Positions 13,137 to 32,000 of a DNA stretch of 32,000 bases are shown piece after piece. This DNA is from an uncultured cyanobacterium (GTDB lineage: Bacteria; Cyanobacteriota; Cyanobacteriia; Cyanobacteriales; Cyanobacteriaceae). The DNA lies in the NCBI GenBank assembly GCA_963749915.1, contig CAVVOP010000025.1:47170-79169 (forward strand). The letters are read 5' to 3'. The notes beneath the pieces were generated by a model, which saw nothing but the letters and a program-made list of their open reading frames with translations, had not been told where the DNA came from and searched no databases. Position numbers and translations under genes: made by a program. Within the stretch, counting starts at the first letter, position 1; each line of letters begins with the position of its first letter.

Positions 13137-13171
13137 TAGACTTTTAAATTTACAGTTACAAAAAAAATATT

Positions 13172-13529: not shown

Positions 13530-13565
13530 CTAACAAAATTTTATTGATTATTTATGACCGTGAAA

Positions 13566-15572
13566 TTAGCCTAAAATGGCTTTAGCTTTAGCCACAACGT
13601 TATCAACGGTAAAACCAAATTTTTCCATGACAACACCACCGGGGGAGGAAGCACCAAAAGTGTCAACACCGATACTTACGCCTTCATCGCCAACATATTT
13701 CGCCCAACCCATGGTGACACCAGCTTCAACGGAAACACGTTTTTTCACCGCCTTAGGTAATACAGATTCTTTATATTCTTCACTTTGTTTTTCAAATAAC
13801 TCTAAACAAGGCATAGAAACAACACGGACTTTTTTGCCTTCAGCCCGTAATTTGACGGCAGCATCTTCACATAAACCAACTTCGCTACCTGTACCTATTA
13901 AGATAATATCAGGAGTTTCTTTGCCACCAGATAATACATAACCACCTTTGGCAACGGCATCAATGGAGGAACCTGCTAGGTTTGGTAAGTTTTGACGGGT
14001 TAAGGCCATAACAGAAGAGTGTTTCTTGGTGTTGATCGCTACTTTATAAGCCCCAGAGGTTTCATTCCCGTCAGCAGGACGGAATACCATCAAATCGGGG
14101 ATTAATCGTAAGGAAGCGACGTGTTCAACGGGTTGGTGAGTAGGACCATCTTCACCTAAGGCGATGGAATCATGAGTCATTACCCAAATTACATGTGCTT
14201 CAGAAAGGGCTGAAAGACGGATGGAATTTCTCATGTAATCAGTGAACACTAGGAAAGTCGCACCGTAAGGAATTAAGCCCGTATTATGGAGAGAAATACC
14301 GTTGCAAATTGCCCCCATGGCGTGTTCTCTGACCCCAAAATGGACGTTACGATTTTCGTACGCACCTTTTTGAAAATCGCCAGAAACGCTGATTTGAGTC
14401 AAGTTAGAGTGGGTTAAATCCGCAGATCCACCAATTAACTGAGGTAATACTTTGGCGATGGCATTTAAGCAAATTTCAGAATGTTTACGACTAGCAAGAG
14501 CCTTATCTTCAGGGGTGTAGGAAGGTAGACAATCTGCCCAATTTTTGGGTAATTTACCAGAAGTGATAGTTTCAAATTCAGCTCCTTCGGTAGGATACTT
14601 AGTTTTATAAGTAGCGAAGGTTTGATTCCATTCTGCTTCTAAACTGGCACCTTTTTCTATGGCTTTACGGAAATGAGTGTAAGCGTCTTCAGGTACAACA
14701 AAAGGATCGTAGTTCCAGCCCAAATTTTCACGGGTGGCTTTAACTTCATCACCGCCTAAGGCCGCACCATGTACTCCTGCTGTATTAGCTTTTTTCGGGG
14801 AACCATAACCGATGGTGGTGGTAACTTTGATCATGGTAGGTTTATCAGTAACGGATTTAGCTGTAGCAATGGCTTTGGCGATTTCATCTAAATCAGTGTT
14901 CCCATTTTTTACGTGAAGAACGTGCCAACCATAAGCCTCGAAACGCTTAGAAACATCCTCGGTGAAAGCTATGTCCGTAGAACCATCAATGGAAATGTGG
15001 TTATCATCATATAAAGCGATGAGTTTACCTAAACCCCAATGTCCTGCCAAAGAAGCCGCTTCACCAGAAATTCCTTCCATATTACAACCATCCCCGAGAA
15101 TAACATAGGTGTAATGATCGATTAAAGTACAATCGGGCTTGTTATATTTAGCCGCTAAATGAGCTTCTGCTAAAGCTAAACCAACACCATTAGCGATACC
15201 TTGTCCCAAGGGGCCAGTGGTTACTTCTATCCCGGCAGTAATATGATTTTCAGGGTGTCCAGGAGTCTTAGAACCCCATTGACGGAATTGTTTAATATCA
15301 TCAATACTTACACTCTCGTAACCATACAAGTGTAATAACGAATATAGGAGCATAGAACCATGACCGGCAGAAAGTACAAAGCGATCGCGGTTAATCCATT
15401 GGGGATTTTTGGGGTTAAACTTCATAAATTGATCCCAAAGCACAAAAGCCATAGGTGCGGCACCCATAGGTAGGCCAGGGTGTCCAGACTTTGCTTTTTC
15501 TACCCCATCAATAGAGAGGAAACGAATTGTATTAACGCAGAGTTCTTGAATAGACTGGGTTGCAACCACCAT
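13566..15572 (-). CDS. tkt: Transketolase
   Basis: 668 aa. Motifs [57 protein letters not shown] (ThDP motif) and [17 protein letters not shown] are canonical transketolase motifs. Confidence 0.95.
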
Positions 15573-17080: not shown

Positions 17081-18334
17081 TTAATTGTTATTAATGGGGA
17101 GAGTTAAAGTAAAACAACTGCCTTTATTTTCTTCAGAAATAAGGGTAATATCTCCCCCATGGAGTCTTGCTAATTCACGGGAAATAACTAAGCCTAATCC
17201 TGTACCTCGATGTTGACGATGAAGGGGAGTATTTAATTGAGAAAAAGCCTGAAATAACTTTTTTTGGTATTTTTTATTAATGCCAATTCCCGTGTCTATG
17301 ACACTAAATTTGAAGTAATTATTTTCCTGTTTTACGTCTAAGGTAATTGAACCATTTTTAGTAAATTTAACAGCATTAGATAATAGATTTACTAATACTT
17401 GTTTAATGCGACGTTGATCTGCATAACAATATTCTACACCAAAAGCTATATTTAATTTTAACTCTAAACCTTGTTCTTCTACTTTTGTTTTTATTAAAGC
17501 CAAGGATGATTCGCATAATTCACTTATGGATATTTTTTCAATAAATAAATCTTCTTTATTTGCTTCAATTTTTGATATATCTAATAAATCAGTAACTAGA
17601 TCTAATAAGTATTTCCCCGACTGATAAATGGCATCTACATATTGAGCTTGTCTTGGGTTTAATGGCCCATATAATTGTTGTTGCAACATCTTAGCAAATC
17701 CTATCACAGCAGCGATCGGGGTTCTTAATTCATGATTCATATGGGAGAAATATTTACTTTGATTTTCTTTATTTTGTATAAGTTTTTTTTCCTCTTCTTG
17801 TAATTCTATTTCTTTGATTTCTAAGAGTTTTTGATAAAGATATATGGACAAGTAATTACCCAATAAATTAGCTATTTTGTGGCTTTCATTTTCTGAACAA
17901 TTAAAAGTTTCTATGTCAATTAATAAATACCCTAATTTTTTATTTTTAAAACTTAACGGAATTATATATAAAAAGTTTATATTATTTTCTTTAAAGTAAT
18001 CATTATTAAGATTATGATCGTTATCTTTCTCTTGAAAATTTAAAAATATATAATTATCTATACATTCTTGTTGTGACTCAGTAATTTTATTTAAACTAGA
18101 TAAATACTTGTCAGTATCTGTGTTGATACAATTAGTATAAATAACCCTAATATTTTCAGATTCTTTCACATAATCATTGACAATGACGAAGCCTTTTAAT
18201 TTTACATATTCCGATAATAGTTTACAGCAACACTCACAAAAGCAATCAATATTGTTGACATTTTCTAATAAAGAAAATAAATAATTATGAATTTCTTGAG
18301 CATTAATTTTCTGTAAAATGAGGTTATTTTGCAT
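17081..18334 (-). CDS. Soluble sensor histidine kinase (GAF-like N-terminal domain, HisKA, HATPase_c)
   Basis: 417 aa. It has the H-box FSHMNHELRTPIAAVIGFAKML, the N-box LVNLLSNAVKFT, and the G-boxes DTGIGI and GTGLGLVISRELARLHGG. No TM helix is evident. A Cys cluster CFCECCC occurs at residues 31-37. Confidence 0.85.
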   Translation of the reverse strand: MQNNLILQKINAQEIHNYLFSLLENVNNIDCFCECCCKLLSEYVKLKGFVIVNDYVKESENIRVIYTNCINTDTDKYLSSLNKITESQQECIDNYIFLNFQEKDNDHNLNNDYFKENNINFLYIIPLSFKNKKLGYLLIDIETFNCSENESHKIANLLGNYLSIYLYQKLLEIKEIELQEEEKKLIQNKENQSKYFSHMNHELRTPIAAVIGFAKMLQQQLYGPLNPRQAQYVDAIYQSGKYLLDLVTDLLDISKIEANKEDLFIEKISISELCESSLALIKTKVEEQGLELKLNIAFGVEYCYADQRRIKQVLVNLLSNAVKFTKNGSITLDVKQENNYFKFSVIDTGIGINKKYQKKLFQAFSQLNTPLHRQHRGTGLGLVISRELARLHGGDITLISEENKGSCFTLTLPINNN

Positions 18335-18380
18335 ATTTTTTACATTTTATTAAGGCTAACTAAAAGCCATAAACAATTTT

Positions 18381-19154
18381 TTAGAATTGTCGCCGAGAGA
18401 AAATGATGACGGTAATACTTAATAGCAGAATAATATACAAAGCCGCATAAATTAAACTACCGACTAATTCTCCTGTACTGGGTAGAATATTGTAAACTGC
18501 TCCATTTTTCAAGTTTAATCTTTCTAAATCTGGCAAGATTAAAAAGAGGGTTTTCGTTATCTTCTCAATACCTGGGTTCTCAGTTATTTTACCTAATTGT
18601 AATAAATCTCTACTTAAATGTCCCATTATTAGCACACCAAAACTCAATAGTGTTGCCAAGATGGAACTGGTAAAGACACCGAAAGTCATAGCTATCGCTG
18701 TTAACAATGCTAACTCTAATAAAATATACCCGATAGCCACTAATAAACTTTGTAGGGGATAGTTTATTCCTAATAGGCTCATCAAGGATAAATATACTAT
18801 AGTCATGGTAGCAACTAATACTATCAGTACTGCCGATAAACCTAAGTGTTTTCCGATAATAAATTCTGTGGTGGTGAGGGGTTTTGGTATTAAAATTAGT
18901 ACAGTTCTTTTTTCTATCTCTTTATTGATTAATCCTGTACCTACAAATATAGCTACTATCGCACCTAATAAGCTAATTCCGCTGATGCCTAAGTCTAAAA
19001 ATATTTTTTCATCGGCACCCACCGCAATGGGTGGTAAAATGCGAGAAGCGAAAATTAGTAATAAGACAAAAAATGCGATTACATATAAAATGCGATCCCT
19101 AATGACCTCCCGAAAACCATTAGTTGCGATCGCAAAAATTCGAGTAATATTCAT
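18381..19154 (-). CDS. ABC-2 type transporter permease (six-TM integral membrane subunit)
   Basis: 257 aa. The N-terminal IATNGFREVIRDRILYVIAFFVLLL pattern and multiple hydrophobic helices are typical of ABC-2/NosY-like permeases. No ATPase gene is adjacent. Confidence 0.65.
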   Translation of the reverse strand: MNITRIFAIATNGFREVIRDRILYVIAFFVLLLIFASRILPPIAVGADEKIFLDLGISGISLLGAIVAIFVGTGLINKEIEKRTVLILIPKPLTTTEFIIGKHLGLSAVLIVLVATMTIVYLSLMSLLGINYPLQSLLVAIGYILLELALLTAIAMTFGVFTSSILATLLSFGVLIMGHLSRDLLQLGKITENPGIEKITKTLFLILPDLERLNLKNGAVYNILPSTGELVGSLIYAALYIILLLSITVIIFSRRQF

Positions 19155-19295
19155 TGGTGTTTGCCATACTGATTCAAGTAATTAAATAGTATTTTAACCA
19201 ATCAGTAGTAATTAGCAATTATTAATTCAGGAAAAAAAAAATTAAAATCCCTTTGTATTTCTAAGCCTTTTGGGCAATTCCTCATCAGTGCGAAC

Positions 19296-20459
19296 TCAAT
19301 TTCTTACTAAGTTGATGACTTGTGCTAAAGTGGCGGTAAGATTGTCCGTACTATAATTATCAATGCAACGTTGCCTAGCTAAATTACCTTTATTCTCGGC
19401 TTGGGTATAATTGGCAAAAATAAGGTTGATTTGTTGTGAGATTCCATCAGGGCATTGAGGTTCAATAGAATATCCTGTATCCTGTAAGATATTAGGGATT
19501 TCTCCGACTTTGGTAGCGATAATGGGTTTTGCCATAGCCATACCCTCAATTAATTCTAAGGGAAACTTAGCAACGGTTGTTAAACTTTTCCTCGGTGTCA
19601 CCATGACGATATGACTCATGGCGATAAATTCTGGCATTGCGTCAAAGGCTTGAGGCTGTATTTGTACAATCCAACGTCCCCATTTTGCTTGTAAAGTGCT
19701 TAGATAAGAAGATTGATTTTTGTTACCTCCCACTAACACTAATTTGAGGTCATCTTGATTTAAACTATCTAAGGCGGTGAATATATCTTCTAAACCTTGG
19801 TCTGGTTTCGGTGTACCAGTAAACATTAATAATCTATATTCTGATAATCCATATTTAGCCCGAATGGCCGTGGGATCGAACTTACTAGGATCGAATAAAT
19901 TCGTATCTTTTGCACTAGGAAGATAAGTGCCACCATAACGATATTCTAAAAATTTACTGCTAAGAGTGATCGCACTTACTTTATCCATGGTTTTTTCCAA
20001 CCATTTAAGATACAAAGGATGTTGAGGTTTTCTTAATTCACCACTACTGGACAAAAGATCAGAAATTAAACTACCTTGATATTGCCAATTATCTCCTCCA
20101 AAAGCACCCATTTCCCAATCATCAATGTCCAAAATAAGGGGTTTTCTACTACGCCATGCCTTAAACAATCCTAATCCCAAGCTGGTTAATTGCGGTTTAA
20201 GAACATAAAGAATATCCCCGTCAATTTCCTCAGTGAAATTTAAACCCATTTTTAGGAAACTAGGCAGATTTGAACCAAAAAGATAGGTAATCGGCAAAGC
20301 ATAGGGTGGTTCTGGATATATTTGTTCGCCATACAAAAAGCCAAAAATGTTAACTTGATAACCCAATTTTTGTAAACCTTGGGCGACAATATAACCCCTA
20401 CTGGTGCCTTGAGATGATAAATCGGGAATTAAAACAGAGATTTTGATTTTATTGGTCAT
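19296..20459 (-). CDS. Glycosyltransferase (GT-B fold, GT4-like)
   Basis: 387 aa. The C-terminal FPLELIEGMAMAKPIIATKVGEIPNIL resembles the GT-B nucleotide-sugar binding motif. The N-terminus KISVLIPDLSSQGTSRGY is typical of GT4-like enzymes. Confidence 0.7.
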   Translation of the reverse strand: MTNKIKISVLIPDLSSQGTSRGYIVAQGLQKLGYQVNIFGFLYGEQIYPEPPYALPITYLFGSNLPSFLKMGLNFTEEIDGDILYVLKPQLTSLGLGLFKAWRSRKPLILDIDDWEMGAFGGDNWQYQGSLISDLLSSSGELRKPQHPLYLKWLEKTMDKVSAITLSSKFLEYRYGGTYLPSAKDTNLFDPSKFDPTAIRAKYGLSEYRLLMFTGTPKPDQGLEDIFTALDSLNQDDLKLVLVGGNKNQSSYLSTLQAKWGRWIVQIQPQAFDAMPEFIAMSHIVMVTPRKSLTTVAKFPLELIEGMAMAKPIIATKVGEIPNILQDTGYSIEPQCPDGISQQINLIFANYTQAENKGNLARQRCIDNYSTDNLTATLAQVINLVRN

Positions 20460-20633
20460 AAAAAACTATGGTGGCAAAATTTACTGGAGTAAGTCATTTT
20501 TCAAATGAGTAATTAGCAATGAGTAATTAGTAATTCAACAAACCCTATTTATGATTTATTCCCCCAATTATCTTCAACTATGATAGTATCTGAGTTAAAT
20601 TAAGTAACAATATGTAAAAATATTAAATTATTT

Positions 20634-21731
20634 GTGTCGGGGAGTATTAATAAAATGAAAAATCAAAGATTATCGGCTAGTAATTTACCGATACAACGCA
20701 GTTATAACCAACCCTTAAAAATAGGGGTTATCGGTGTTGGTAACATGGGGCAACATCACACCCGTGTGTTAAGTTTACTTAAAGATGTAGAATTAGTGGG
20801 CATAGCCGATGTCAATGTCGAAAGAGGCTTGGATGTTGCCAGTAAATATCGAGTTCATTTTTTCGAGAATTACCTCGAAATGTTATCCCATGTGGACGCA
20901 GTTTGTATCGCTGCTCCTACAAAATTACATCATCAGGTGGGTTTAGAATCTTTAAATGCCGGAGTCCACGTTTTAATTGAAAAACCCATCGCCGCTAGTA
21001 TAGCCGAAGCAGAATCCCTAGTCAATGCCGCCGCCGCCACCAACTGTATTTTACAGGTAGGACATATCGAAAGATTTAACCCCGCCTTCCAGGAATTAAG
21101 CAAAGTCTTAGAAACTGAAAATTTATTAGCCTTAGAAGCACATCGCATGAGTCCATATTCTGATCGTGCTAATGATGTATCGGTCGTGTTAGACTTAATG
21201 ATCCATGACTTAGACTTATTATTAGAATTGGCAGGATCTCCTGTAGTTAAACTGAGTGCTAGTGGTAGTCGAGCTTCTGGATCTGAATATTTAGACTATG
21301 TAACCGCAACTCTTAACTTTGCTAATGGAATTGTTGCCACTGTCACCGCCAGTAAAGTAACCCATCGCAAAATTCGTCGTATCGTAGCACACTGTAAAAA
21401 CAGTCTTACGGAAGCGGATTTTCTCAACAATGAAATTTTAATCCATCGTCAAACTACCGCTAATTATACAACTGATTACGGTCAAGTTTTATATCGTCAA
21501 GATGGTTTAATTGAAAAAGTATATACAAGCAATATTGAGCCTTTACACGCAGAATTAGAACATTTTGTCGGTTGTGTCAGGGGAGGAAATAAGCCTTCTG
21601 TAGGCGGAGAACAGGCCTTGAAAGCCTTACGGTTAGCCAGTTACATTGAACAGTTAGCCTTAGATGGCAAAGTGTGGCAAGAATCTCCTTTAGACTTAAA
21701 ACAACTCAATGGGGGGTTTATCAACATTTAA
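20634..21731 (+). CDS. Gfo/Idh/MocA family NAD(P)-dependent oxidoreductase
   Basis: It has the Rossmann motif IGVIGVGNMGQHH, EKPIA, and a GHIERFNP motif. The GTG at 20634 may be upstream of the true start; an ATG at 20649 (MKNQRL...) is an alternative. Confidence 0.85.
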   Translation: MSGSINKMKNQRLSASNLPIQRSYNQPLKIGVIGVGNMGQHHTRVLSLLKDVELVGIADVNVERGLDVASKYRVHFFENYLEMLSHVDAVCIAAPTKLHHQVGLESLNAGVHVLIEKPIAASIAEAESLVNAAAATNCILQVGHIERFNPAFQELSKVLETENLLALEAHRMSPYSDRANDVSVVLDLMIHDLDLLLELAGSPVVKLSASGSRASGSEYLDYVTATLNFANGIVATVTASKVTHRKIRRIVAHCKNSLTEADFLNNEILIHRQTTANYTTDYGQVLYRQDGLIEKVYTSNIEPLHAELEHFVGCVRGGNKPSVGGEQALKALRLASYIEQLALDGKVWQESPLDLKQLNGGFINI

Positions 21732-21849
21732 AACCATTGATGATTGATAATCACAATTAACAATTAATTTAAAAGACTGAAAAACTAGAAATAAATCAAC
21801 TTTTACCTTATGATTTATTGGCAAATGGGAATTGAATAAATTATAAAAT

Positions 21850-22800
21850 ATGCGCATTTTTGTTACTGGTGCTAGTGGATGTATAGGTCATTATATTGCT
21901 GATTTATTGATTAAAAATACCGATCATGAATTGTTTTTATTAGTCAGAAATCCTAGTAAACTCAAATTTGATTATAATCATCGTGAAGGGGTTAATATTC
22001 TTCAAGGCGATTTAGCCCAAGTTCTTGATTATAAAGAGTTATTAAACACTATTAATATAGCCATTTTGGCGGCGACTTGTTGGGGCGGTGAAGAAGAATC
22101 CTATCAAATAAATGTTGAGGCAAATCTAAATTTAATTAACAGTTTAAACAAAGAAAATTGTCAACAAATAATATATTTTTCTACTGCGAGTATTTTAGAT
22201 CAAAATAATCAACTTTTAACAGAAGCAGGAGAAATTGGCACTGATTATATTCGCACTAAATATCAATGTTTTACAAAATTATCAGAGTTAGAATTATATC
22301 CAAAAATTATCACTGTTTACCCCACTTTAGTTTTCGGCGGCGATGATCATAAACCTTATTCTCATCTTTCCGGAGGCTTGAAGGATTTACCTAAATTGAT
22401 GAATTTAATTCGTTGGTTTCAAGCTGATGGTAGTTTTCATTTTATTCATGCTTATGATATTGCTACCGTCATCGCTTATTTGGTGGAAAATGGAACTAAT
22501 TTAGAGGGTTATTTTGATAAAAAATTAGTTTTAGGCAATCGACCATTAACGGTTAATGAAGTGATAAAAGAGATTTGTAATTATCTTCGTAAAAAAGTTT
22601 ATTTTCAAATACCTTTACCGATTTGGTTAGCAAATATTTTCATAAAAGTGTTTAATATTCAAATGGCAGAATGGGACTATTTTTGTTTTAATTATCGTCA
22701 TTTTATTTACGGTAAATTTGTCAATCCAACTACCTTTAATTTAGAACCTTATGCACCGAATTTAACTAAATTATTAGAAGTTTCACAAGTTTCTAAGTAA
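21850..22800 (+). CDS. NAD-dependent epimerase/dehydratase family (extended SDR) protein
   Basis: 316 aa with N-terminal MRIFVTGASGCIGHYIADLL (GxxGxxG Rossmann) and a YxxxK-like YIRTK. The substrate is unknown. Confidence 0.75.
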   Translation: MRIFVTGASGCIGHYIADLLIKNTDHELFLLVRNPSKLKFDYNHREGVNILQGDLAQVLDYKELLNTINIAILAATCWGGEEESYQINVEANLNLINSLNKENCQQIIYFSTASILDQNNQLLTEAGEIGTDYIRTKYQCFTKLSELELYPKIITVYPTLVFGGDDHKPYSHLSGGLKDLPKLMNLIRWFQADGSFHFIHAYDIATVIAYLVENGTNLEGYFDKKLVLGNRPLTVNEVIKEICNYLRKKVYFQIPLPIWLANIFIKVFNIQMAEWDYFCFNYRHFIYGKFVNPTTFNLEPYAPNLTKLLEVSQVSK

Positions 22801-22851
22801 TTATAGCAATCAGGAATGATTTGTGAGGTTTTAGTCAAGGCAAATGATCAA

Positions 22852-23427
22852 TTATTTATCGGCAATAATTTTCGCCGCTAATATTCCACCGATAAAACCG
22901 AATAAATGTCCTAACCATGAGACATGAGGATTGGAGGGTAAAACTCCCCAAATCATGCCACCATAGAGGAAAACCACCATTAAAGAAAGGGCAATAGATG
23001 GGGTATTTTTTTGGAAGTAACCCCGTAAAAGGAGAAAACCTAAGTAACCAAAAATAACTCCACTAGCACCAACGGTAATAGAATTTGGTCGTGCAAATAA
23101 CCATACTCCGATACCACTAACTATCATAGAATAGAAACTGACAGTGAAAAAGTCATCGGTATCCTGCAACATCACAAACCAAGCTAAAATGGCAAAGGGT
23201 ACTGTATTGGCGATTAAATGGGTAAAATCTGTATGCAGAAATGGTGCTAGAATTATCCCTCTTAATCCCACTATATTCCTTGGTATGATACCAAAATAAT
23301 CTAGGCGATCGCCAAAAAAAGTTTGGTTAACAATTTCCACAATCCAAAAAATAGCGATAAAAGTACCAATAATGTTAAATTGGGATTTTAATTCTTTAAC
23401 AAACCCCTTCATATTCTCATCACTCAT
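22852..23427 (-). CDS. Rhomboid family intramembrane serine protease
   Basis: 191 aa, polytopic. It carries GASGVIFGYLG (the catalytic GxSG) and a downstream HLFGFIGG (catalytic His helix). Confidence 0.85.
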   Translation of the reverse strand: MSDENMKGFVKELKSQFNIIGTFIAIFWIVEIVNQTFFGDRLDYFGIIPRNIVGLRGIILAPFLHTDFTHLIANTVPFAILAWFVMLQDTDDFFTVSFYSMIVSGIGVWLFARPNSITVGASGVIFGYLGFLLLRGYFQKNTPSIALSLMVVFLYGGMIWGVLPSNPHVSWLGHLFGFIGGILAAKIIADK

Positions 23428-23906
23428 GAGTCATTTTCCTGTTGAGTTATTTTCTCCATTTTATAGCGATCAAAAGAAATATTTCCATAATAAACCGTTT
23501 CCATTGCGGAAATAGTAAAACCACAGCGAGAAAAGACCGGTTGAGAGAAAAAACTTGCCTCGGTGTAAAATCTGCTTATTCCTTGTTTAATCCCCATTTC
23601 TAACACATATAACAATAATTTTGTGCCGTAACCTTGACGAGTAAAATCAGGATGGAGATAAAAAGAAGCAATATACCCATCATTTTTTAAACCACAAAAG
23701 CCGATAATTTGCCCATTTTTAAGTAATAAATAGGTATCAGCATTAAAAATAAAATCATGAAACTGACTAATATTATTGGGTGCAGATGACCAAGCAATGA
23801 CTTGTGAGGGGGAATATAAACTAGGGGCAAGTTTTTTGACAGTATGAGAGTATATCTGCCTTAATTTATCAAAATCTTCCTTCACAGCTAAACGAAACAT
23901 AAGCAA
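23424..23906 (-). CDS. GNAT family N-acetyltransferase
   Basis: 160 aa with the acetyl-CoA binding motif RQGYGTKLLLYVLE (R/Q-x-x-G-x-G/A). Its stop overlaps the rhomboid start (ATGA at 23427-23424). Confidence 0.85.
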   Translation of the reverse strand: MLMFRLAVKEDFDKLRQIYSHTVKKLAPSLYSPSQVIAWSSAPNNISQFHDFIFNADTYLLLKNGQIIGFCGLKNDGYIASFYLHPDFTRQGYGTKLLLYVLEMGIKQGISRFYTEASFFSQPVFSRCGFTISAMETVYYGNISFDRYKMEKITQQENDS

Positions 23907-23999
23907 TTAACAGTTAATTACTAAATCGATTATCGACGGTCTATTGTCAATGATGGTTTACAATACTTAATAATATCCCATTAAATTAATGATTAGATT

Positions 24000-24266
24000 A
24001 TGAGTGCAAAAGTAGAAATTTATACATGGAGTACTTGTCCTTTCTGTATTCGTGCTAAAGGTTTATTAAAACAAAAACAAGTAGAGTTTATCGAATATTG
24101 TATTGACGGGGATAATGAAGCTAAAATGAAAATGTCAGAAAGAGCGAATGGGCATGCTAGCGTTCCGCAAATTTTTATTGATGATAAGCATATCGGCGGA
24201 TGTGCTGATTTATATGAGATTAACGCCACAGGAGAATTAGATAAATTATTAGGAGGAATTAGTTAA
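24000..24266 (+). CDS. grxC: Glutaredoxin (Grx3/GrxC type, CPFC active site)
   Basis: 88 aa. Motifs VEIYTWSTCPFCIRAKGLL, VPQIFIDDKHIGGCADL and the GG motif match classical dithiol glutaredoxin. Confidence 0.9.
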   Translation: MSAKVEIYTWSTCPFCIRAKGLLKQKQVEFIEYCIDGDNEAKMKMSERANGHASVPQIFIDDKHIGGCADLYEINATGELDKLLGGIS

Positions 24267-24354
24267 CTCACCGAAAACCTCTTTGCCTTGCCTGTGTTAG
24301 CATCTTTGCGAGAGAAACCAACCCGACACCGCCAAACTCAAATTACCCCATCAT

Positions 24355-25320
24355 ATGAAATTTGTATTTATTATAGATCCCATCGCCAAATTAGATCCCA
24401 CCCATGATAGTAGCGTGGCGATGATGGAATCCGCTCAAAATTTAGGTCATGAAGTTTATATCACTACCATTAATGAACTTAGTGTTGTTAGTGGTAAAGC
24501 CTATGCACATTTACAAACTGTTACCCTTAAACCTGTAAAATTAATACATAATCACTGGCAAATAGAAGAAAACTGGTATTCATTGACAGAATCCACTTTT
24601 TTACCTCTAGAATTTTGTGATGCGGTGTTTATGCGTAAAGATCCGCCTGTTAATATTCCCTATCTTTATGCCACATACATTTTAGACTTAATCGATCCTC
24701 AGAAAACAAAAGTTATCAATTCTCCCCAAGGGATTCGCTCAGCTAACGAAAAAATGTACGCTTTACAATTCCCTTCTGTTCTTCCTGCCACCATCGTCAC
24801 CCAGAGTAAATCTGTCATTGCTGATTTTTTAGCAGAAAAAGAAGCGATAATACTAAAACCTCTTGGAGGTAAGGCTGGAGAGGGGATTTTATTCTTACAA
24901 CAAGGCGATCGCAATTTCAACTCGTTGATCGAAATTAGTACCAAACAAGGGCAAGAACCGATTATGGTACAAGAATATTTACCATCGGCAAAAGAAGGAG
25001 ATAAAAGAATTATCTTATTAAACGGTTTATCCATTGGTGCAGTGAATCGCATTCCTACAGGCAAAGAATTTCGAGGAAATATGGCTGTAGGAGGTAGAGT
25101 TGCTCCCACACAAATTACTGAAAGAGAGTTAACTATTTGTGAAACCCTTGCACCAAAACTTCTAGAAGACGGTTTATTCTTCGTGGGAATAGACGTAATC
25201 GGCGGCTATTTAACAGAAGTAAACGTAACCAGTCCAACGGGAATCAGAGAAATTGATCGGCTAAACAGTGTGAAGTTAGGAGAAAAAGTTATTAAGGCGG
25301 TTGTTTCTCCATGTCAATAA
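24355..25320 (+). CDS. gshB: Glutathione synthetase (prokaryotic ATP-grasp type)
   Basis: 321 aa. MKFVFIIDPIAKLDPTHDSSVAMMESAQ..., MRKDPP, ILKPLGGKAGEGI, GDKRIILLNG, RGNMAVGG and LTEVNVTSPTGIREI are canonical GshB motifs. It lies directly downstream of grxC. Confidence 0.95.
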   Translation: MKFVFIIDPIAKLDPTHDSSVAMMESAQNLGHEVYITTINELSVVSGKAYAHLQTVTLKPVKLIHNHWQIEENWYSLTESTFLPLEFCDAVFMRKDPPVNIPYLYATYILDLIDPQKTKVINSPQGIRSANEKMYALQFPSVLPATIVTQSKSVIADFLAEKEAIILKPLGGKAGEGILFLQQGDRNFNSLIEISTKQGQEPIMVQEYLPSAKEGDKRIILLNGLSIGAVNRIPTGKEFRGNMAVGGRVAPTQITERELTICETLAPKLLEDGLFFVGIDVIGGYLTEVNVTSPTGIREIDRLNSVKLGEKVIKAVVSPCQ

Positions 25321-25371
25321 ATTATTTGCCTTATTATGTTAGTTGATCACAAAGCTACAAGCTTTTACCAA

Positions 25372-25461
25372 CGGAGAGAGAGGGATTCGAACCCTCGGTG
25401 GAGCTATAAACCCCACAACTTCTTAGCAGGAAGCCGCTTTCAACCGCTCAGCCATCTCTCC
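25372..25461 (-). tRNA. tRNA-Ser (anticodon GCU), class II with long variable arm; CCA not encoded
   Basis: The reverse complement is GGAGAGATGGCTGAGCGGTTGAAAGCGGCTTCCTGCTAAGAAGTTGTGGGGTTTATAGCTCCACCGAGGGTTCGAATCCCTCTCTCTCCG. The acceptor stem is GGAGAGA/TCTCTCC, the anticodon stem GCTTC/GAAGT with loop CT-GCT-AA, the variable stem GTGGGG/CTCCAC, and the T arm GAGGG-TTCGAAT-CCCTC. Confidence 0.9.
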
Positions 25462-25573
25462 ACATAGATATCTAGAGAATTATAACAAATCCTAATGACT
25501 TTTGGCAACACATAGTTTTGTTGCGTATTGTTAAGTTTTGTATGCGATTCTCCTGGTTCTTTTTGAGAAATTA

Positions 25574-25603
25574 TTGACAGTGGTTACGCCATCGAGATAG
25601 GAT
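25574..25603 (+). promoter_or_regulatory. Candidate sigma70-type promoter for rplU-rpmA
   Basis: TTGACA (25574-25579), an 18-nt spacer, then TAGGAT (25598-25603). This would give a leader of about 100 nt before the rplU ATG. The call rests on sequence match only. Confidence 0.35.
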
Positions 25604-25708
25604 GGGGGGTGGTGTCTTAAAATCTTGTTCGGATCAGGTCAAGAAATAGATAAAGCAGAAAAATTAAACTCTGCTACCTGTACGGCAGTATATAAAAAGG
25701 AAATTAAT

Positions 25709-26086
25709 ATGACTTACGCAGTAATTGAAATCTGTGGGAAACAACTTAAAGTTGAACCCGGCAGATTTTATGATTTAGATAGAATTGATGTAGAATTAGA
25801 CGGTGATTTGGTCATTGAAAAAGTGTTACTAATTCATCACCAGGATCAAATTCAGATTGGACAACCTTACATTGAAGGTGGTAGCGTCAGCAGTACAATT
25901 ATCGGTCACCGTCGGGGTAAAAAGGTAATCGTTTATAAAATGCAACCGAAGAAGAAAACCCGTAAAAAAAGAGGCCATAGGCAAGAATTAAGTCGCTTAA
26001 TGATTAATTCCATCAGTTTAGACGGCAAATTGTTGGCGCAAAAACCTACGGAAGCTGTTGAAGCAGAAGTTGCCGTTGGAGCTTAA
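25709..26086 (+). CDS. rplU: 50S ribosomal protein L21
   Basis: MTYAVIEICGKQLKVEPGRFYDLDRI... is the conserved L21 N-terminus. The ORF-track start at 25625 adds 28 non-conserved residues. The ATG at 25709 is preceded by AAAGGA. Confidence 0.93.
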   Translation: MTYAVIEICGKQLKVEPGRFYDLDRIDVELDGDLVIEKVLLIHHQDQIQIGQPYIEGGSVSSTIIGHRRGKKVIVYKMQPKKKTRKKRGHRQELSRLMINSISLDGKLLAQKPTEAVEAEVAVGA

Positions 26087-26145
26087 GATTGAGCACAATA
26101 GATTTTAGAGATAAAATAAATTTACTATACTAGGAGTATAATTGA

Positions 26146-26409
26146 ATGGCACATAAGAAAGGTACAGGTAGTACAAGAAACGGGAGAGATTCTAATTCTA
26201 AGCGCTTAGGGGTTAAACGTTATGGCGGCGAAAGCGTTAAGGCTGGTAATATTTTAGTTCGTCAACGTGGCACTAAAATTTACCCCGGCAATAATGTTGG
26301 TATCGGGAAAGATGATACCCTTTTTGCACTTATCGAAGGAGTTGTTAAATTTGAATATAAAACTGCTAGTCGGAAAAAAGTAAGTGTGTATCCTCTAGAA
26401 GTGGCTTAA
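26146..26409 (+). CDS. rpmA: 50S ribosomal protein L27
   Basis: [52 protein letters not shown] is the canonical L27 sequence. Confidence 0.95.
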
Positions 26410-26440
26410 GTTGCCGAAATAAAACTTGGATAGTCAAAAG

Positions 26441-26490
26441 ACTGGGTAAGCTAAATCTAATTTTAGAGGTCGCCTTCACCCAGTTTTTTT
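26441..26490 (+). terminator. Rho-independent terminator after rpmA, in the gap between the convergent rpmA and AKR genes
   Basis: ACTGGGTAAG (26441-26450) pairs with CTTCACCCAGT (26474-26484) with one bulge, followed by T7 (26484-26490). Confidence 0.7.
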
Positions 26491-26510
26491 ATGGTGTGTT
26501 CTGTAGATGC

Positions 26511-27473
26511 TCAACTAAAATTCCACATCACAGGGTTATCATCTAAATGTTTTGTTACTTCATAGCCAATGGCACTAATTTTGATCACGTCTTCTTCACT
26601 TAACTTGATTTCTACCGCTTGGGCATTTTCTTTTACCTGTTGTGAGTTTCTTGCCCCTACAATAGCGTTGCTTTTCGGTTGTTTTATTAACCATGCGATC
26701 GCCAATTGACCTAAAGTACAATTATATTGTTGAGCAATGGGGGTTAATTGAGTTAGGGCTGTTTGTACCCTTTCCCAGTGGGGGGATTGAAATAAACGAT
26801 GATCTTTGCGATGATCACCCTCATCAAAGTGAGGATTATTCCCAAATTTTCCGGTTAAAATCCCTTGTGCAAGGGAAGAATAAGCCAAAATTGAGATATT
26901 ATGCTCAATACAATAGGGTTGTGTCTCTTTTTCTACCCCGCGCCAAAAAAGAGAATAAGGGGGTTGAATGCTATCAATCTGCCCATAATTAGAGGCTTCT
27001 GCTAATTCCTGACAAGAAAAGTTGGACACCCCTAGGGCTCTAATTTTACCCTGTTGTTTTAAATCATTTAACGCCTTCATAGTTTCTTCTATGGGAACAA
27101 TCTCACTTTTCCAACTACCCGAGGGCCAATGAATTTGATATAAATCAATATAATCTGTCTGTAAGTTTGTCAAGGAATTATCACAGGCGGCGATCACCTG
27201 ATTATATTTCATGTGATTAGCAAAAACTTTCGTTGCATAAATTACTTTATCCCGCACATCTTTTAAAGCTTGACTAACAATTCTTTCCGAGTGTCCTTCT
27301 CCATATACTTCGGCGGTGTCAATGGTGGTAATACCTACCTCAAAAGCCTCTCGAATTGCTTTAATACTTTCGGTATCTTCAATACCAGCCCACATTCTTT
27401 TGCCCGCTTGCCATGTACCCATAATTACAGGAGTAATGTATAAATTTGAGTTACCTAATTGTCTAGTTTCCAT
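26511..27473 (-). CDS. Aldo/keto reductase family oxidoreductase
   Basis: 320 aa. METRQLGNSNLYITPVIMGTW, IDTAEVYGEGHSE, DLYQIHWP and LGVSNF are AKR signature segments. It sits 18 nt downstream of the GH57 gene on the same strand. Confidence 0.9.
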   Translation of the reverse strand: METRQLGNSNLYITPVIMGTWQAGKRMWAGIEDTESIKAIREAFEVGITTIDTAEVYGEGHSERIVSQALKDVRDKVIYATKVFANHMKYNQVIAACDNSLTNLQTDYIDLYQIHWPSGSWKSEIVPIEETMKALNDLKQQGKIRALGVSNFSCQELAEASNYGQIDSIQPPYSLFWRGVEKETQPYCIEHNISILAYSSLAQGILTGKFGNNPHFDEGDHRKDHRLFQSPHWERVQTALTQLTPIAQQYNCTLGQLAIAWLIKQPKSNAIVGARNSQQVKENAQAVEIKLSEEDVIKISAIGYEVTKHLDDNPVMWNFS

Positions 27474-27491
27474 TTTTACTCAGTTTTTTTA

Positions 27492-29987
27492 TTAGGAAGG
27501 AAAAAAAATATCTAAATATTCCGCTAATTTTATCCATAAACGCAGTTGATTATTCGTTTTTAAAATACCATTATGTCCCGATAATGTAGGTAACAATTGT
27601 TGATGTAAGAAGTCGTAATAAGTTTCTTGAACTTTATCTAACCACAGATTAAGTTTTAATTGTTGTCCCACTTTTATCAATTTATCTATCAATTGAATAT
27701 CTGTTTCCAAGCTATCCGATCGATTCTCTGATAGAATTTGTTTAAGACAAGATAAGATTAAATTCTCAAGGGTTTTTTTCCCTTTTGGGATCTCCAATTT
27801 GCATCTTAAATTATCTGCCTCCCCTGCGATCGCCTCTAGGTCAATTAAATAAGGTTCCAAATTATCAAGGTCGGGGTTGTTATTATTAATGGCCTCAATG
27901 ACTTTAAGACAACGATAGGAAATAGCTATTTCTGCCGCCACCTGTAACTCTTGGGGAATCGGCACTTCATCCCGTTGAAAAGCGAGTAAAATACTGTAAT
28001 TATCTCGATAAACTTGAGTATAAAGCTGATCAAGGCGTTTTTTCGTGGTGGTGGTTAATTTCTGCATAATAGATAACCTTTCTTCCGCAAAAAGATGTTT
28101 TAAATCGAAGGATTTGTTACCGAATAGCCGACTCATGGTTAAAATTAAATCGACGATGCTGGTTTGCTTCAACAGGGCAAATAATTCCTCTTTCATCTCG
28201 GTATAAGCCAAGCGACTAGAAAAGGGTTGAATACAACAGTGAAAATCCCAACCGCCAAGATGCAACACCGCAAAGATAAAATGTCCACTTTCCCAAGTAA
28301 TTTGTGAGGTTAAACGCACTTGCCCTATTACCAACGTTAAAGAACCGATCTGTTGTTTTTGATAGTCTAATTGTTGGGCAGAGTAACAGTAAATATTTTG
28401 CTCCTCTTGATAGTTATTATAGAGAGAACTAAGGGCATAATGGGCCGTTACTTGTTCTAAATTGACTTGAGATGGTATCACCGCTTGACGATAAACCCCT
28501 TCACCGTTTCTATATTCCTCAACATTACTCTCGGCAAGGGATAATCGATGGATAAATTCCTTTTCTAATTGTACTCCAGCAACCTCTCCCACTAAATCTA
28601 CCGCATGGGAAGCATAGCGTAGTACTTGTGTACCTTCAGGACGAGAAATTTCTTCAAAAAACCAACCGCAACTGGTAAACATTAATAAAGAGTTTCGTTG
28701 TATTTCTAACAATCGTAGAGCGTCAATTTCTTCGGAGGAGGATAATTTATGAGTGCTATGACGATGCAAAAATTGTTTGATGGTGTCCTGACTACGATCT
28801 AAAATAACTTCTATATATTCATCTCTGGCTAACCAAGGATTTTGAAAATAATTATAACCAACATCCTCATAAACTTTAGTTAACTCGTCTCGTAACCAAT
28901 TTAAAGTCTCTCGTAGGGGTTTACGCCATTTTTGATGGTATTCACCACCACCGCCGCAACCACAATCATCTTGCCATCTTTCCACACCATGATAACAACT
29001 CCAAGCAGTAACGGGTTTTAATTCCACCTCCCATGTAGGAGTTACTAAACTAAGATAGTGTGCATAATTAGTAACTGTCCAACCTTGTTGCGGAAATTCT
29101 TGAGTGAAAGTATAGGCCAGACATTTTTCCGTATCTTTTTTATGATGCCCAAAAGTTTCCCCGTCGGTGGCCACAGAAATAATTTGCGATGGACGATCAT
29201 CCCCTCGAATGGCTAACTTTAACCGAGAGTGAAAATGATGACTGCTTAAGAGGACATCCCCGAAACCCATATCCCCAGAAATAGGTCCATCATAGAAGAA
29301 AATGTCAATATAATCCCCATCGTTAACATAACACCGATAAGGCCGTGTCGGGTCAATTTGTCCTCCCCCAACCTCTAGCCATTGGTTATTATCTCTGACA
29401 ATAGGGCGACATCTCTTGGCTTGGGTAGGTGCAAGGATAATAAACTTAATCCCCTCGGCAATTAATACTTCCAAAGTGGGATAATCTACTGCCGTTTCTG
29501 CTAACCACATTCCTTCGGGTTGTCTTCCAAAGCGATGATAAAAGTCGGCTTTTCCCCATTTTATCTGTGTATATTTATCTCTTTCGTTAGCAAGGGGCAA
29601 GATAATATGATTATACACTTGAGCGATGGCATTACCGTGACCATTCAACCGTTGACAACTAAGGCGATCGGCTTCAATAATTTTCTGATATACTTCAAGA
29701 TCATATTTTTCTAACCATGACATTAAAGTAGCACCGATATTAAAACTCATGTACTCGTAGTTATTGACAATACCGACAATATCTCCATCATCGTTGAAAA
29801 TACGGGCAAAGGCATTATTACGATAACACTCATAAAAAATACGCTCATTCCAATCATGAAAAGGGTGTGCGCTAGGTTGCCTTTCAATAACGTTAAGGTA
29901 AGGATTTTCTCTAGGGGGCTGATAAAAATGTCCGTGAACTGTGACATAAATACCTTTTGCTTCCTGTAGAGGGTGACATTTCAGGTA
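27492..29987 (-). CDS. Glycoside hydrolase family 57 protein with a long C-terminal helical domain (DUF3536-like); start codon unresolved
   Basis: The in-frame translation upstream of the ORF-track Met (29750) continues as YVTVHGHFYQPPRENPYLNVIERQPSAHPFHDWNERIFYECYRNNAFARIFNDDGDIVGIVNNYEYMSFNIG, the conserved GH57 N-terminus. The true gene therefore extends to at least 29948. The frame is open to 29987 but holds no in-frame ATG/GTG/TTG there. An ATG at 29979 lies one base out of frame. Confidence 0.85.
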   Translation of the reverse strand, partial: YLKCHPLQEAKGIYVTVHGHFYQPPRENPYLNVIERQPSAHPFHDWNERIFYECYRNNAFARIFNDDGDIVGIVNNYEYMSFNIGATLMSWLEKYDLEVYQKIIEADRLSCQRLNGHGNAIAQVYNHIILPLANERDKYTQIKWGKADFYHRFGRQPEGMWLAETAVDYPTLEVLIAEGIKFIILAPTQAKRCRPIVRDNNQWLEVGGGQIDPTRPYRCYVNDGDYIDIFFYDGPISGDMGFGDVLLSSHHFHSRLKLAIRGDDRPSQIISVATDGETFGHHKKDTEKCLAYTFTQEFPQQGWTVTNYAHYLSLVTPTWEVELKPVTAWSCYHGVERWQDDCGCGGGGEYHQKWRKPLRETLNWLRDELTKVYEDVGYNYFQNPWLARDEYIEVILDRSQDTIKQFLHRHSTHKLSSSEEIDALRLLEIQRNSLLMFTSCGWFFEEISRPEGTQVLRYASHAVDLVGEVAGVQLEKEFIHRLSLAESNVEEYRNGEGVYRQAVIPSQVNLEQVTAHYALSSLYNNYQEEQNIYCYSAQQLDYQKQQIGSLTLVIGQVRLTSQITWESGHFIFAVLHLGGWDFHCCIQPFSSRLAYTEMKEELFALLKQTSIVDLILTMSRLFGNKSFDLKHLFAEERLSIMQKLTTTTKKRLDQLYTQVYRDNYSILLAFQRDEVPIPQELQVAAEIAISYRCLKVIEAINNNNPDLDNLEPYLIDLEAIAGEADNLRCKLEIPKGKKTLENLILSCLKQILSENRSDSLETDIQLIDKLIKVGQQLKLNLWLDKVQETYYDFLHQQLLPTLSGHNGILKTNNQLRLWIKLAEYLDIFFPS

Positions 29988-30103
29988 TTAAAATATTTTG
30001 GTTAGAGTTATCGACAGTAACTGTAGTCATGGGAAAAAATAAAATGAGGCTCCTATATTTGAGCTATACTAGCAAAAAATCATCTATTTGTAAAAGAGTT
30101 GTG

Positions 30104-30484
30104 ATGGCAGATGAATCTCTAGTCAAGCTTACCCTAGTTTTCAACGATCCAGACTTGGATGCCGAAGAAAAGGATGAGGAAGTGCAAAAGCTCCTCAATC
30201 AGATGCAGAAGCTCGATGAAGTTGAGGAAATTACTCGCGTTATCGATCCCAATCCACCAGCAGAGAATAAGGCACTGGGGGGCTTTCTGGTGGGAATGCT
30301 GACGGCTGTAGTGAAGCCAGAGAATATCAAGGTATTATTTGGGTTTTTAAGTGAACGACTGAAAGGCAAGCCCATTGAAATAGCTATTAAAGCGCCAGAT
30401 GGCAGAGAATTGAATATTAAAGCTAACAGTCAAGCTGAGTTTGAATTCGCCTTTCAGAAAGCACAGGAATTTCTTAAATCATAG
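30104..30484 (+). CDS. Small (126 aa) EACC1-like protein (effector-associated constant component), operonic with the caspase
   Basis: MADESLVKLTLVFNDPDLDAEEKDEEVQKLLNQMQKLDEVEEITRVIDPNPPAENKALGGFLVGMLTAVVKPENIKVLFGFLSERLKGKPIEIAIKAPDGRELNIKANS.... The layout is an acidic helix, then a P-rich linker, G-rich hydrophobic segments, and a DGR-x-hydrophobic strand. This matches my recollection of the EACC1 family found next to caspase/trypsin effectors, and I did not verify it by HMM. The ORF-track start at 29957 is an unsupported extension. The stop lies 9 nt before the caspase start. Confidence 0.55.
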   Translation: MADESLVKLTLVFNDPDLDAEEKDEEVQKLLNQMQKLDEVEEITRVIDPNPPAENKALGGFLVGMLTAVVKPENIKVLFGFLSERLKGKPIEIAIKAPDGRELNIKANSQAEFEFAFQKAQEFLKS

Positions 30485-30493
30485 GTAGGGAAA

Positions 30494-32000
30494 GTGGCAA
30501 AAATGGCGTTGCTGATTGGAGTTAGTGAGTATGAGCCAGGTTTGAATCCGCTTCCTGGTGCTGTCAAGGATGTAGATGCAGTGCAGCAAGTTTTGTTGCG
30601 TCCAGAGATAGGGGGATTTATTGAGTCTGATGTAACTGTGCTGAAAAATCCTGCCCGACAGAAAATGGAGGAAGAAATCGAGAAACTATTTAGCAATCGG
30701 CAAAAAGACGATCTCGTGCTACTTTTCTTCTCCGGTCATGGTATTAAAGATGACACAGGCAAGCTTTATTTGGCAACACGCAACACTCAGAAAACTGACC
30801 GAGGAGAGTTACGTGCGCTCCTCTGCTGTGGCAGCTAGTTTTGTCCATGAAAATATGGAACGCAGCCGTTCTAAGCGGCAAGTGGTGATTCTTGATAGTT
30901 GCTTTAGTGGGGCTTTTGCTGAGGGTTTATCGGCTAAAGATGATGGCACTGTTAACATCCGCGAGCAATTAGGAGGAGAAGGAAGGGCTATTCTCACTTC
31001 ATCGACTTCAACTCAATATTCCTTTGAACAGCAGGAATCAGATCTTTCAATTTACACCCGTTATTTGATTGGGGGAATTACAACTGGGGCGGCAGACTTA
31101 AATGACGATGGGTTTGTCTCGATGGGTGAGTTGCATGATTATGTCAGCCAGAAGGTCAGAGAAACACAGCCAGCGATGAAGCCGGAGATTTATCCGGGCA
31201 AAGAAGGTTATACAATCCGACTCACAAAAGTTCCTCCCGGCGATCCTAAAGAGAAATATGCTAAAGAAGTAGCGCGATACAGTAGCCGAGGAGAGGTTAC
31301 TTTTGTGGGGCGTAAAATTTTAGATGCTCAGAGAATTCAGTTGGGTTTGTCTGAGGATGAAGCAAGGGCGATTGAAGATGAGATTTTGGCAGTTGCTCGT
31401 CAAGAATTTCGAGAAAAATTACAACGCTACGAGCAAGATTTTACAGAAGCTTTGCAACAAGAAGTCCCTCTCAGTGAAGCCGATATTGATTCTCTAAGAC
31501 AGAATCTCAAGCAAATTTTGGGATTGAGAAATGAAGATATCCAACCGATTGAGGCACAGGTTAGGGCAAGAATTGAGGCTTACCAGCAACATCTCCAACA
31601 GTACGAGAGAGCAGAAATTTACCGAGGCGATGCGACAGGAATATCCTCTGAGTGAAACAACTCGCCGTCACTTGTAGGCAAATCCGCAACAATGGGAACT
31701 TAAGGAACCGGATTTAACTTCGATTGAAAGCCGAATTACTGCTGAAATAGAGGCATATCGACAGAAATTGCGAGCAATACGAACAGGCATTTACTAACGC
31801 ATTACAGCAGGAATATCCTCTCAGTGAAGGGAAGCGTAATGAACTGGCAACAACAGCAAAATTTAGGTCTGAAGGCTGGAGATATTGCCCCGATTGAAGC
31901 TCGAATTACTGCTGAGGTTGAAGCCTACCAGCAAAAATTACAACAGTACGAGGAGGTACTAACGCAAACTATTCAGCATGAATACCCCCTCAGTGCATGA
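30494..32000 (+). pseudogene. Orthocaspase (peptidase C14, His-Cys dyad) with C-terminal tandem helical repeats. It is frameshifted at about 30809-30813, broken again at least four times in the repeats, and continues past the window end.
   Basis: Frame 1 reads ALLIGVSEYEPGLNPLPGAVKDVDAV...DDLVLLFFSGHGIKDDTGKLYLATRN (catalytic His codon 30737-30739). Frame 2 continues VRSSAVAASFVHENMERSRSKRQVVILDSCFSGAF (catalytic Cys codon 30899-30901) ...ILTSSTSTQYSFE...DLNDDGFVSMGELHDYV. Removing one base near 30812 joins them as ...TDRGELVRSSAV.... Confidence 0.8.
31341..32000 (+). repeat. Tandem coding repeats (period about 165-177 nt, 55-59 codons), at least 4 units, forming the caspase C-terminus
   Basis: Units start at about 31341, 31518, 31696 and 31863. 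Each reads approximately LGL-x3-(D/E)(I/A)-x-(P/A/S)IE-x3-A-x(2-4)-E-(A/F)-(Y/R)-(Q/E)-x-(K/H)-L-(Q/R)-x-YE-x6-9-(Q/H)-(Q/H)E(Y/V)PLS(E/A). Seeing this requires switching frames between units. Confidence 0.75.

Follow-up and report, generated by a model that had tools for sequence, protein, structure and literature searches.

The stretch of DNA analyzed here (hereafter the window) comprises 32,000 nt of contig CAVVOP010000025.1 from an uncultured cyanobacterium (assembly GCA_963749915.1). Its last part, from position 30104 to the end, carries two adjacent genes that we read, with a probability of roughly 0.8, as a copy of the two-gene EACC1-caspase conflict module with its proposed caspase-activated pore mechanism. 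The first gene encodes a small EACC1-like protein and the second a caspase-like protease. This reading is supported by the matches of the protease to Peptidase_C14 and NF047832, by the linkage of the two families across cyanobacterial genomes, by the variable C termini of the proteases, and by an AlphaFold2 (AF2) model in which the small protein has two halves. The EACC1-caspase system has already been described, and the window adds a further member to it. The preliminary description of this stretch had reported a 126-amino-acid (aa) open reading frame (ORF) and a caspase-like gene, co-oriented and 9 nt apart, and both were found in that arrangement. The features of the small gene and of its partner are as follows.

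30104-30484, plus strand: EACC1-like gene, 126 aa, intact, a predicted latent pore-forming effector (subthreshold match to PF19953)
30245-30283, plus strand: interdomain linker, residues 48-60, DPNPPAENKALGG, the predicted cleavage region (low AF2 confidence)
30272-30313, plus strand: Gly-rich hydrophobic segment, residues 57-70, ALGGFLVGMLTAVV (hydropathy and conservation)
30494-31240, plus strand: Peptidase_C14 domain (Pfam/NCBIfam), interrupted between the His and Cys codons by a +1 insertion at 30815
31241-32000, plus strand: conserved helical region with four repeats of ~57 aa at 31414-31997 (detected as direct repeats), within which the gene leaves the window

The caspase-like gene starts with a GTG codon at 30494, 9 nt past the stop of the 126-aa ORF, and its N terminus, MAKMALLIGVSEY, fits the family consensus MAKVALLIGVSEY derived from 62 aligned partner proteins. 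It had been described as a peptidase C14 with an FSGHG His and a DSCFSGAF Cys, followed by a helical repeat array, and this description held in full. The His codon of FSGHG lies at 30737-30739 and the Cys codon of DSCFSGAF at 30900-30902, and the two halves of the gene each matched Peptidase_C14 (PF00656), with E values of 9e-16 and 3e-6. The catalytic dyad, H79 and C133, was invariant in the 62 partner proteins, and the helical region was conserved across the same alignment. In the window the repeats have a period of 169 to 178 nt (successive spacings of 178, 172, and 169 nt), and in the closest relative the spacings are 174, 171, and 171 nt. That relative is a metagenomic contig (L001) that is 98.2% identical over window positions 29893-32000 and carries the same caspase gene intact, while the window gene is readable only in pieces (30494-30838, 30738-31655, 31531-31677, and onward), a break already implied in the preliminary description by its mention of frame repair. 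The proposed profile search of the caspase also bore out its assignment: NF047832, named "caspase, EACC1-associated type," gave 88.3 and 82.3 bits on the two window halves and 171.2 bits on the intact L001 protein, against a cutoff of 140 bits. The L001 protein is 937 aa long, with Peptidase_C14 at residues 1-229 and an FGE-sulfatase domain at 696-931; its gene runs ~1.3 kb past the equivalent of the window end, into the FGE-sulfatase domain. When the changes private to the window were removed, the resulting protein differed from that of L001 at a few residues only. The FGE domain of L001 is preceded by a moderately hydrophobic Gly-rich segment, with RRK ahead of it. A sequence search of the PDB with the caspase domain gave no match, and a profile of the full-length partners matched PDB entries only through its FGE part, including TvpA and FGE structures. 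The scan for promoters and terminators gave hits at background level.

The small protein showed a weaker individual match to its family. Its alignment with the Pfam EACC1 model PF19953 covered model positions 3-93 of 107, with an E value of 0.0013 and a score of 19.1 bits, where the cutoff is 23.6 bits; PF19953 was nevertheless the sole plausible family in the Pfam search, and NCBIfam gave no match. Its relatives gave better scores. PF19953 was matched by 20 of 30 close relatives (best E value, 5e-5) and by 14 of 40 distant ones (best E value, 4.5e-6), and it was the only family that the relatives matched repeatedly. Scaled from the E value and score of the window protein, the best distant relative would reach an estimated ~27 bits, above the cutoff. 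One relative that is 60% identical to the window protein (P0131) bears a precomputed PF19953 match. The family is large and cyanobacterial: a single-sequence search returned 162 matches, a profile search of a first protein collection returned at least 2,080 relatives, and an exhaustive search of a second collection returned 486 clusters at 50% identity. Several of the database names of family members P0046, P0072, P0093, P0138, P0171, and P0179 read "sugar ABC transporter permease," with one "exonuclease V alpha subunit" and one "FerR"; these names look like propagated misannotations.

An AF2 model built with 30 relatives in the alignment (mean predicted local distance difference test score [pLDDT], 80) gave an α+β fold with the element order β1-α1-β2, a loop at residues 48-60, and then β3-α2-β4-β5-α3. 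The block of lowest confidence comprised residues 51-60 (mean pLDDT, 57). The Kyte-Doolittle maximum of the protein, 1.77 over 15 residues, falls at residues 56-70, and G59, G60, and G64 were 95 to 99% conserved among 245 distinct relatives; in the monomer model this hydrophobic segment forms a buried strand. The model resembles a split ferredoxin-like α+β sandwich, and a Foldseek search of the PDB returned nothing at an E value of ≤0.001, with weak ferredoxin-like resemblances only. A Gly-rich hydrophobic segment with α+β flanks is the defining anatomy of EACC1 (Kaur, Burroughs, Iyer & Aravind 2020, PMC7159879), and the window protein thus has it. The preliminary description had named this protein EACC1-like. 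That identity stood at the level of the family and of its NF047832-matching partner, while the 126-aa protein itself stayed under the cutoff. Because of the family-level PF19953 evidence and the caspase partner that matches NF047832, we assign the gene, as far as sequence comparison goes, to a divergent cyanobacterial branch of EACC1; the assignment holds for the family, with a subthreshold score for the individual protein.

We used the neighbor genes at 80 cyanobacterial genome loci that encode a homologue of the small gene. The scan of genome contigs contained no close relative of the source (best identity, 63%). A caspase ORF lay directly downstream on the same strand at 74 of the 80 loci, usually 9 to 10 nt away, which confirmed the suspected co-occurrence of the two families. 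Of the remaining six loci, two stop too early for a verdict, three carry orphan genes, and the last is a read-through fusion. The orphan EACC1 genes stand beside a convergent gene of 1,681 aa (L022), unrelated genes (L026), and a transposase-like ORF (L079), and in the fusion (L087) noncaspase sequence follows in the EACC1 frame for more than 616 aa. The pairing is far beyond chance, and it includes members in Microcystis genomes. All 62 full-length partners matched both NF047832 and Peptidase_C14. Their C termini varied: FGE-sulfatase in 16, GUN4 in 10, periplasmic-binding in 8, TPR in 5, EAL in 3, and HSP70 in 2. A constant EACC1, a constant caspase, and a variable C terminus make up the pattern of the published two-gene system (PMC7159879).

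The same loci bear on the view, put forward in the preliminary description, that the two genes form the effector arm of an NTPase-centered system, with a STAND/AAA+ NTPase gene just beyond position 32000. Some EACC1-linked caspases in other phyla are indeed fused to STAND/Avs NTPases (Evans et al. 2025, 10.1101/2025.11.14.688446; PMC7159879). However, the EACC1 system by definition consists of two genes, and where a sensor or NTPase occurs it is fused to the caspase (PMC7159879); no STAND/AAA gene recurred among the nearest flanking genes on each side at 67 loci (122 proteins). The commonest flanking family was the housekeeping TypA/BipA GTPase, found at 7 to 8 closely related Nostoc loci, followed by DUF29, MazF-type toxins, and Uma2. 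Nor was there an NTPase among the 25 most frequent families listed for the 62 partner proteins, barring HSP70 in two. L001 continues with the FGE domain, a template repeat, and small toxin-antitoxin-like DUF2283, UPF0175, and DUF3368 genes, and no NTPase gene was found beside the module in L001 to L006 or upstream of it in the window. Judged in this way from relatives of the window locus, an NTPase gene beyond 32000 is very improbable, and the module is not NTPase centered. A DUF697/GTPase gene was considered as a third component and dropped, as it does not recur across loci. It occurs at L002 5492-6925, L003 3725-5158, and L006 1387-2838; in two contigs it sits just upstream of an EACC1 copy with 92% identity, and in a Crocosphaera metagenome-assembled genome it lies a few kilobases off.

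By homology with the one characterized pair, the two proteins would work together as follows. EACC1 would be a small soluble α+β protein whose N-terminal half (approximately residues 1-47) masks the C-terminal half, which bears the Gly-rich hydrophobic segment. The partner would be a multidomain sensor-protease with an N-terminal caspase, then a conserved stalk of helical repeats, and finally a C-terminal sensing domain past the window end. In L001, this last domain has an FGE-sulfatase/C-type-lectin fold, is probably located outside the membrane, and contains the variable repeat of a diversity-generating retroelement (DGR). A signal at the C-terminal domain would activate the caspase, which would cut EACC1 in the linker (residues 48-60); the site that we favor is after Lys56. 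The freed C-terminal fragment would then oligomerize and permeabilize the membrane, and the cell would be killed or arrested. In the Ktedonobacter pair, EACC1 receives a single cut from the caspase, putatively at Asp49; toxicity is confined to the C-terminal fragment, and liposomes leak with cleaved EACC1 but not with the uncleaved protein (10.1101/2025.11.14.688446). The two halves of the AF2 model and the low-confidence loop between them agree with these published N-terminal autoinhibitory and C-terminal toxic fragments. For the cyanobacterial pair, the analysis establishes the identities of the genes, their linkage, their architecture, and the accessory status of the module; the cut, the pore, and the trigger are inferred from homology.

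We propose Lys56 (30269-30271) as the cut site because it is invariant and because orthocaspases cut after basic residues according to the literature (PMC6426788). Lys56 was conserved in 100% of the 245 distinct relatives, compared with 99% for P52 and 75% for D48, and more distant relatives mostly have Lys or Arg there. A cut after K56 would yield predicted fragments of 6.4 and 7.7 kDa. Two residues ahead of Lys56, the window protein and its closest relatives have Glu54 (30263-30265), where 89% of the 245 relatives have Gly.

A different order of events would make the pair a nonlethal signaling device, in which a membrane-associated EACC1 acts as a sensor or anchor and switches on the caspase for self-processing or the processing of other targets, or in which the orthocaspase serves homeostasis. 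This was the original sequence-based inference for the system (PMC7159879), the GUN4, EAL, and periplasmic-binding C-terminal domains look like physiological sensors, and reviews stress nondeath roles of cyanobacterial orthocaspases. In experiments on a homologous pair, however, the order was the opposite: EACC1 is the substrate of the caspase, and its C-terminal fragment is toxic by itself and leaks liposomes (10.1101/2025.11.14.688446). In addition, the hydrophobic segment, with its ~15 residues modeled as a buried strand, is easier to reconcile with a latent form than with a resident helix in the membrane. We therefore regard nonlethal signaling as quite unlikely.

Under the caspase-activated pore mechanism, the C-terminal domain would receive the trigger, and in several relatives this domain bears the marks of a DGR. 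The last 129 nt of the caspase-FGE gene of L001 (3294-3422) form a variable repeat (VR) that recurs as a template repeat (TR) at 3597-3725, 174 nt past the end of the gene. The window gene probably continues in a similar way past position 32000. Seven of the eight VR/TR mismatches in L001 fall at TR adenines, as do 20 of 22 in L056, 15 of 16 in L086, 12 of 14 in L081, and 11 of 16 in L062; such adenine-biased mismatches are a DGR signature. Complete cassettes were found at L086 4148-8329 and L081 10001-14181, in the order EACC1, caspase-FGE with the VR, an avd-like gene (112 aa), a reverse transcriptase (RT) gene (352 to 354 aa), and the TR. The TR of L001 may be stranded, without avd and RT. 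Both elements of this link have precedents: orthocaspase N termini on DGR targets were reported in a cyanobacterial DGR survey (PMC7517822), and a connection of EACC1-protease pairs with DGRs has been described before (10.1101/2025.11.14.688446). A bolder version of the mechanism would be an outside-in suicide switch, in which a DGR-diversified FGE/C-type-lectin ectodomain senses an extracellular ligand, perhaps a phage receptor-binding protein or a kin signal, the helical stalk relays this to the cytoplasmic caspase, and the cut after Lys56 opens the pore. We consider this specific version unlikely.

The broken frame of the protease gene requires a separate explanation. The lesions were called by base-by-base comparison with the intact, 98.2%-identical L001, and most of them lie in one region.

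31605-31996, plus strand: cluster of lesions private to the window in the caspase gene (comparison with L001)

Upstream of this cluster, an extra G at 30815 is absent from L001 and from two other contigs, L089 and L090. The cluster itself includes a 4-nt duplication (+GAGA at 31605-31608), a C-to-T nonsense change (CAG to TAG at 31675-31677), a compensating pair (+G at 31678 and -1 at 31686), +G at 31772, -GG at 31846, and +C at 31996. The reported tally for the caspase gene is six net frame-shifting indels, the compensating +1/-1 pair, and one TAG. The EACC1 gene differs from that of L001 by two substitutions and no indels. Thus, of the two frames that a functional copy would need, the EACC1 frame is intact and the caspase frame is broken, and as written the window copy could not fire. 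L001 covers the lesion sites throughout and L089 and L090 cover them to ~30930, while the contigs of P0207 and P0208 end short of the downstream lesions.

Because the lesions are private and burst-like, and because similar bursts occur in housekeeping genes of sister contigs, we favor an assembly error, and the caspase lesions are somewhat more probably an artifact than real. None of them is common to L001, L089, or L090 where these assemblies cover it. The window shows no indels against L089 over 23864-29969 and then a burst of lesions in its last 2 kb. Coming straight after 6 kb free of indels, this burst also touches the 5' end of the neighboring housekeeping GH57/DUF3536 gene, where +A at 29970 (versus a further contig, L088) shifts the frame near codon 20 (affected region, window 29751-30030, minus strand). 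The callable ORF of this gene is 752 aa long, versus 845 to 855 aa in relatives, whose start maps to approximately window position 30030. Comparable private bursts occur in housekeeping genes of the sister contigs, which belong to the same ENA assembly series: L088 has six private indels within 1.45 kb (12538-13989, corresponding to window 26045-27493), which split an aldo-keto reductase gene, and its SelO gene is in three pieces, while a single private indel in L090 (position 1144, window 26774) splits the same aldo-keto reductase gene. The contig names and the indel pattern suggest error-prone long-read assemblies with consensus errors, and the patch at 31675-31686 (a substitution, +1, a substitution, and -1 within 12 nt) resembles poor consensus.

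If the lesions were real, the protease-sensor gene would be a decaying pseudogene that has left a harmless, uncleaved EACC1 precursor as an orphan. This is a tenable, if less favored, explanation. Eight indel events (two of them the compensating +1/-1 pair) and one TAG fall within ~1.2 kb of the caspase gene, the adjacent EACC1 gene has no indels, and the events lie mostly outside homopolymers, with the GAGA duplication and the C-to-T nonsense change among them. Orphan EACC1 genes without a caspase occur elsewhere (L022, L026, and L079), the closest relative, L001, has apparently already lost avd and RT beside its TR, and the window shows some gene decay in its transposase fragments as well. 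In a subvariant of the outside-in switch considered unlikely above, the lesions are real and the intact EACC1 may have been kept because a paralogous caspase fires it in trans. Programmed frameshifting and a naturally split p20 caspase were both ruled out, since the breaks differ in kind and are not shared with L001, L089, or L090 where these cover them, and since the first break parts the His half from the Cys half.

Several points weigh against reading the pair as a caspase-activated pore module. The window protein's own PF19953 score lies below the Pfam EACC1 cutoff, and PADLOC has no EACC1 model. The sole characterized pair is that of Ktedonobacter, with an Avs12-fused protease and a putative Asp site rather than a Lys site. 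For the sensor domain, the membrane topology, and the retroelement link, the source is a relative (L001) rather than the window, and in L001 the candidate membrane segment falls below a strict hydropathy threshold and neither avd nor RT appears in the 1.8 kb examined after the TR. Finally, the mostly nonhomopolymer character of the caspase lesions, with a nonsense substitution and a 4-nt duplication, fits real mutation equally well.

The module is an accessory element that shows presence/absence polymorphism in a Geminocystis-like cyanobacterium. The window genes upstream of it are housekeeping genes, and window housekeeping proteins have cluster mates from Geminocystis strains (order Chroococcales). 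The left boundary of the module was defined by the end of homology and a rise in GC content.

30047-30103, no strand assigned: left edge of a strain-variable island and 5' leader of the module

The 92-kb contig L088 matches window 17473-30046 at 99.0% identity, with an abrupt end of homology at window position 30046/30047 (L088 position 9984). L088 lacks the module, its GH57 gene adjoins a biotin carboxylase gene, and L001 gave no match to it. In L089 and L090 (99.5% identity to the window), the module is present beside GH57, and EACC1 copies of at least 90% identity were found in other genomic contexts. The GC content is 0.44 over 30047-32000 versus 0.361 over 1-30046. The impression that the pair looked foreign was therefore well founded, given this difference in GC content (0.44 versus 0.36) and the absence of the module from the 99%-identical syntenic contig. 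Farther upstream, at 10226-12069 on the minus strand, overlapping ORF fragments correspond to an IS66-family transposase (in two pieces) and a DDE_Tnp_1/DDE_Tnp_4 transposase; these broken insertion sequences lie among what are otherwise housekeeping genes.

In marine and bloom-forming cyanobacteria, cell death is frequently tied to "metacaspase activity." To our knowledge, no substrate or killing mechanism is known for cyanobacterial orthocaspases. The present analysis places a large orthocaspase subfamily beside a conserved small partner from a family of protease-activated pore formers, and the EACC1 partner is a concrete candidate for both substrate and effector of cyanobacterial orthocaspases, with Lys56 as the candidate cut site and, in some members, a sensor domain diversified by a retroelement. 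The preliminary description had stated that no such pairing had a demonstrated function in unicellular cyanobacteria; as to cyanobacteria this stands, but for the family a pore-forming fragment has been reported (10.1101/2025.11.14.688446). Four points are modestly new: the unicellular Geminocystis-like host, a cyanobacterial branch of EACC1 most of which Pfam does not recognize, the invariance of Lys56, and the broken protease. The value of the window copy itself is lower, since the system is known, the window edge truncates the copy, and the protease gene is broken, perhaps through assembly error alone. If the outside-in switch were true, a unicellular cyanobacterium would have gained an adaptable, receptor-triggered cell death pathway.

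The module can be compared with several known systems. Bacterial gasdermin-protease modules follow the same logic, in that a protease removes the inhibitory part of a latent pore former (an analogy drawn in 10.1101/2025.11.14.688446), but gasdermins have no sequence or fold relation to EACC1. With DGR variable proteins of the FGE-type C-type-lectin fold (Treponema TvpA, PDB 2y3c), the module shares the match of the partner profile to TvpA and FGE structures, the VR/TR pairs in L001, L056, L062, L081, and L086, and avd and RT in L081 and L086; it differs in that the TR of L001 stands alone, without avd or RT, and the window counterpart lies beyond 32000. With cyanobacterial orthocaspases, for example, the Microcystis MaOC family, it shares the p20-type domain, the FSGHG and D-x-C-F-S-G motifs, and the typical C-terminal fusions to FGE-sulfatase, GUN4, and TPR domains. 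The portions of the orthocaspase literature available to us do not mention an upstream EACC1 partner, and the basic cleavage specificity, known from other members, is here predicted for the EACC1-associated subfamily. The Ktedonobacter racemifer EACC1-KrAvs12 pair (10.1101/2025.11.14.688446) has the same two-half monomer with a cleavage region near residue 50, and its reported fragments of 5.7 and 7.1 kDa compare with the 6.4 and 7.7 kDa predicted for the window EACC1. However, its sensor is an Avs12 STAND ATPase that recognizes phage tail connectors, whereas L001 has an FGE/C-type-lectin domain and no NTPase, and it has a putative Asp49 site where the cyanobacterial family has an invariant Lys56 and Asp48 in only 75%. 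The last comparison is with the EACC1-caspase "System 4" (PMC7159879), some members of which bear membrane-spanning sensors. According to its description, System 4 is prevalent among actinobacteria and occurs sporadically in proteobacteria, while the members described here form a cyanobacterial branch that lies mostly under the Pfam EACC1 cutoff and has a helical repeat stalk after the caspase, and the window copy is frame broken. In spite of these differences, the layout is the same in both: a small 5' EACC1 gene whose product has a Gly-rich hydrophobic segment with α+β flanks and, adjacent to it in the same orientation, a 3' gene whose product has an N-terminal caspase and a highly variable C terminus.

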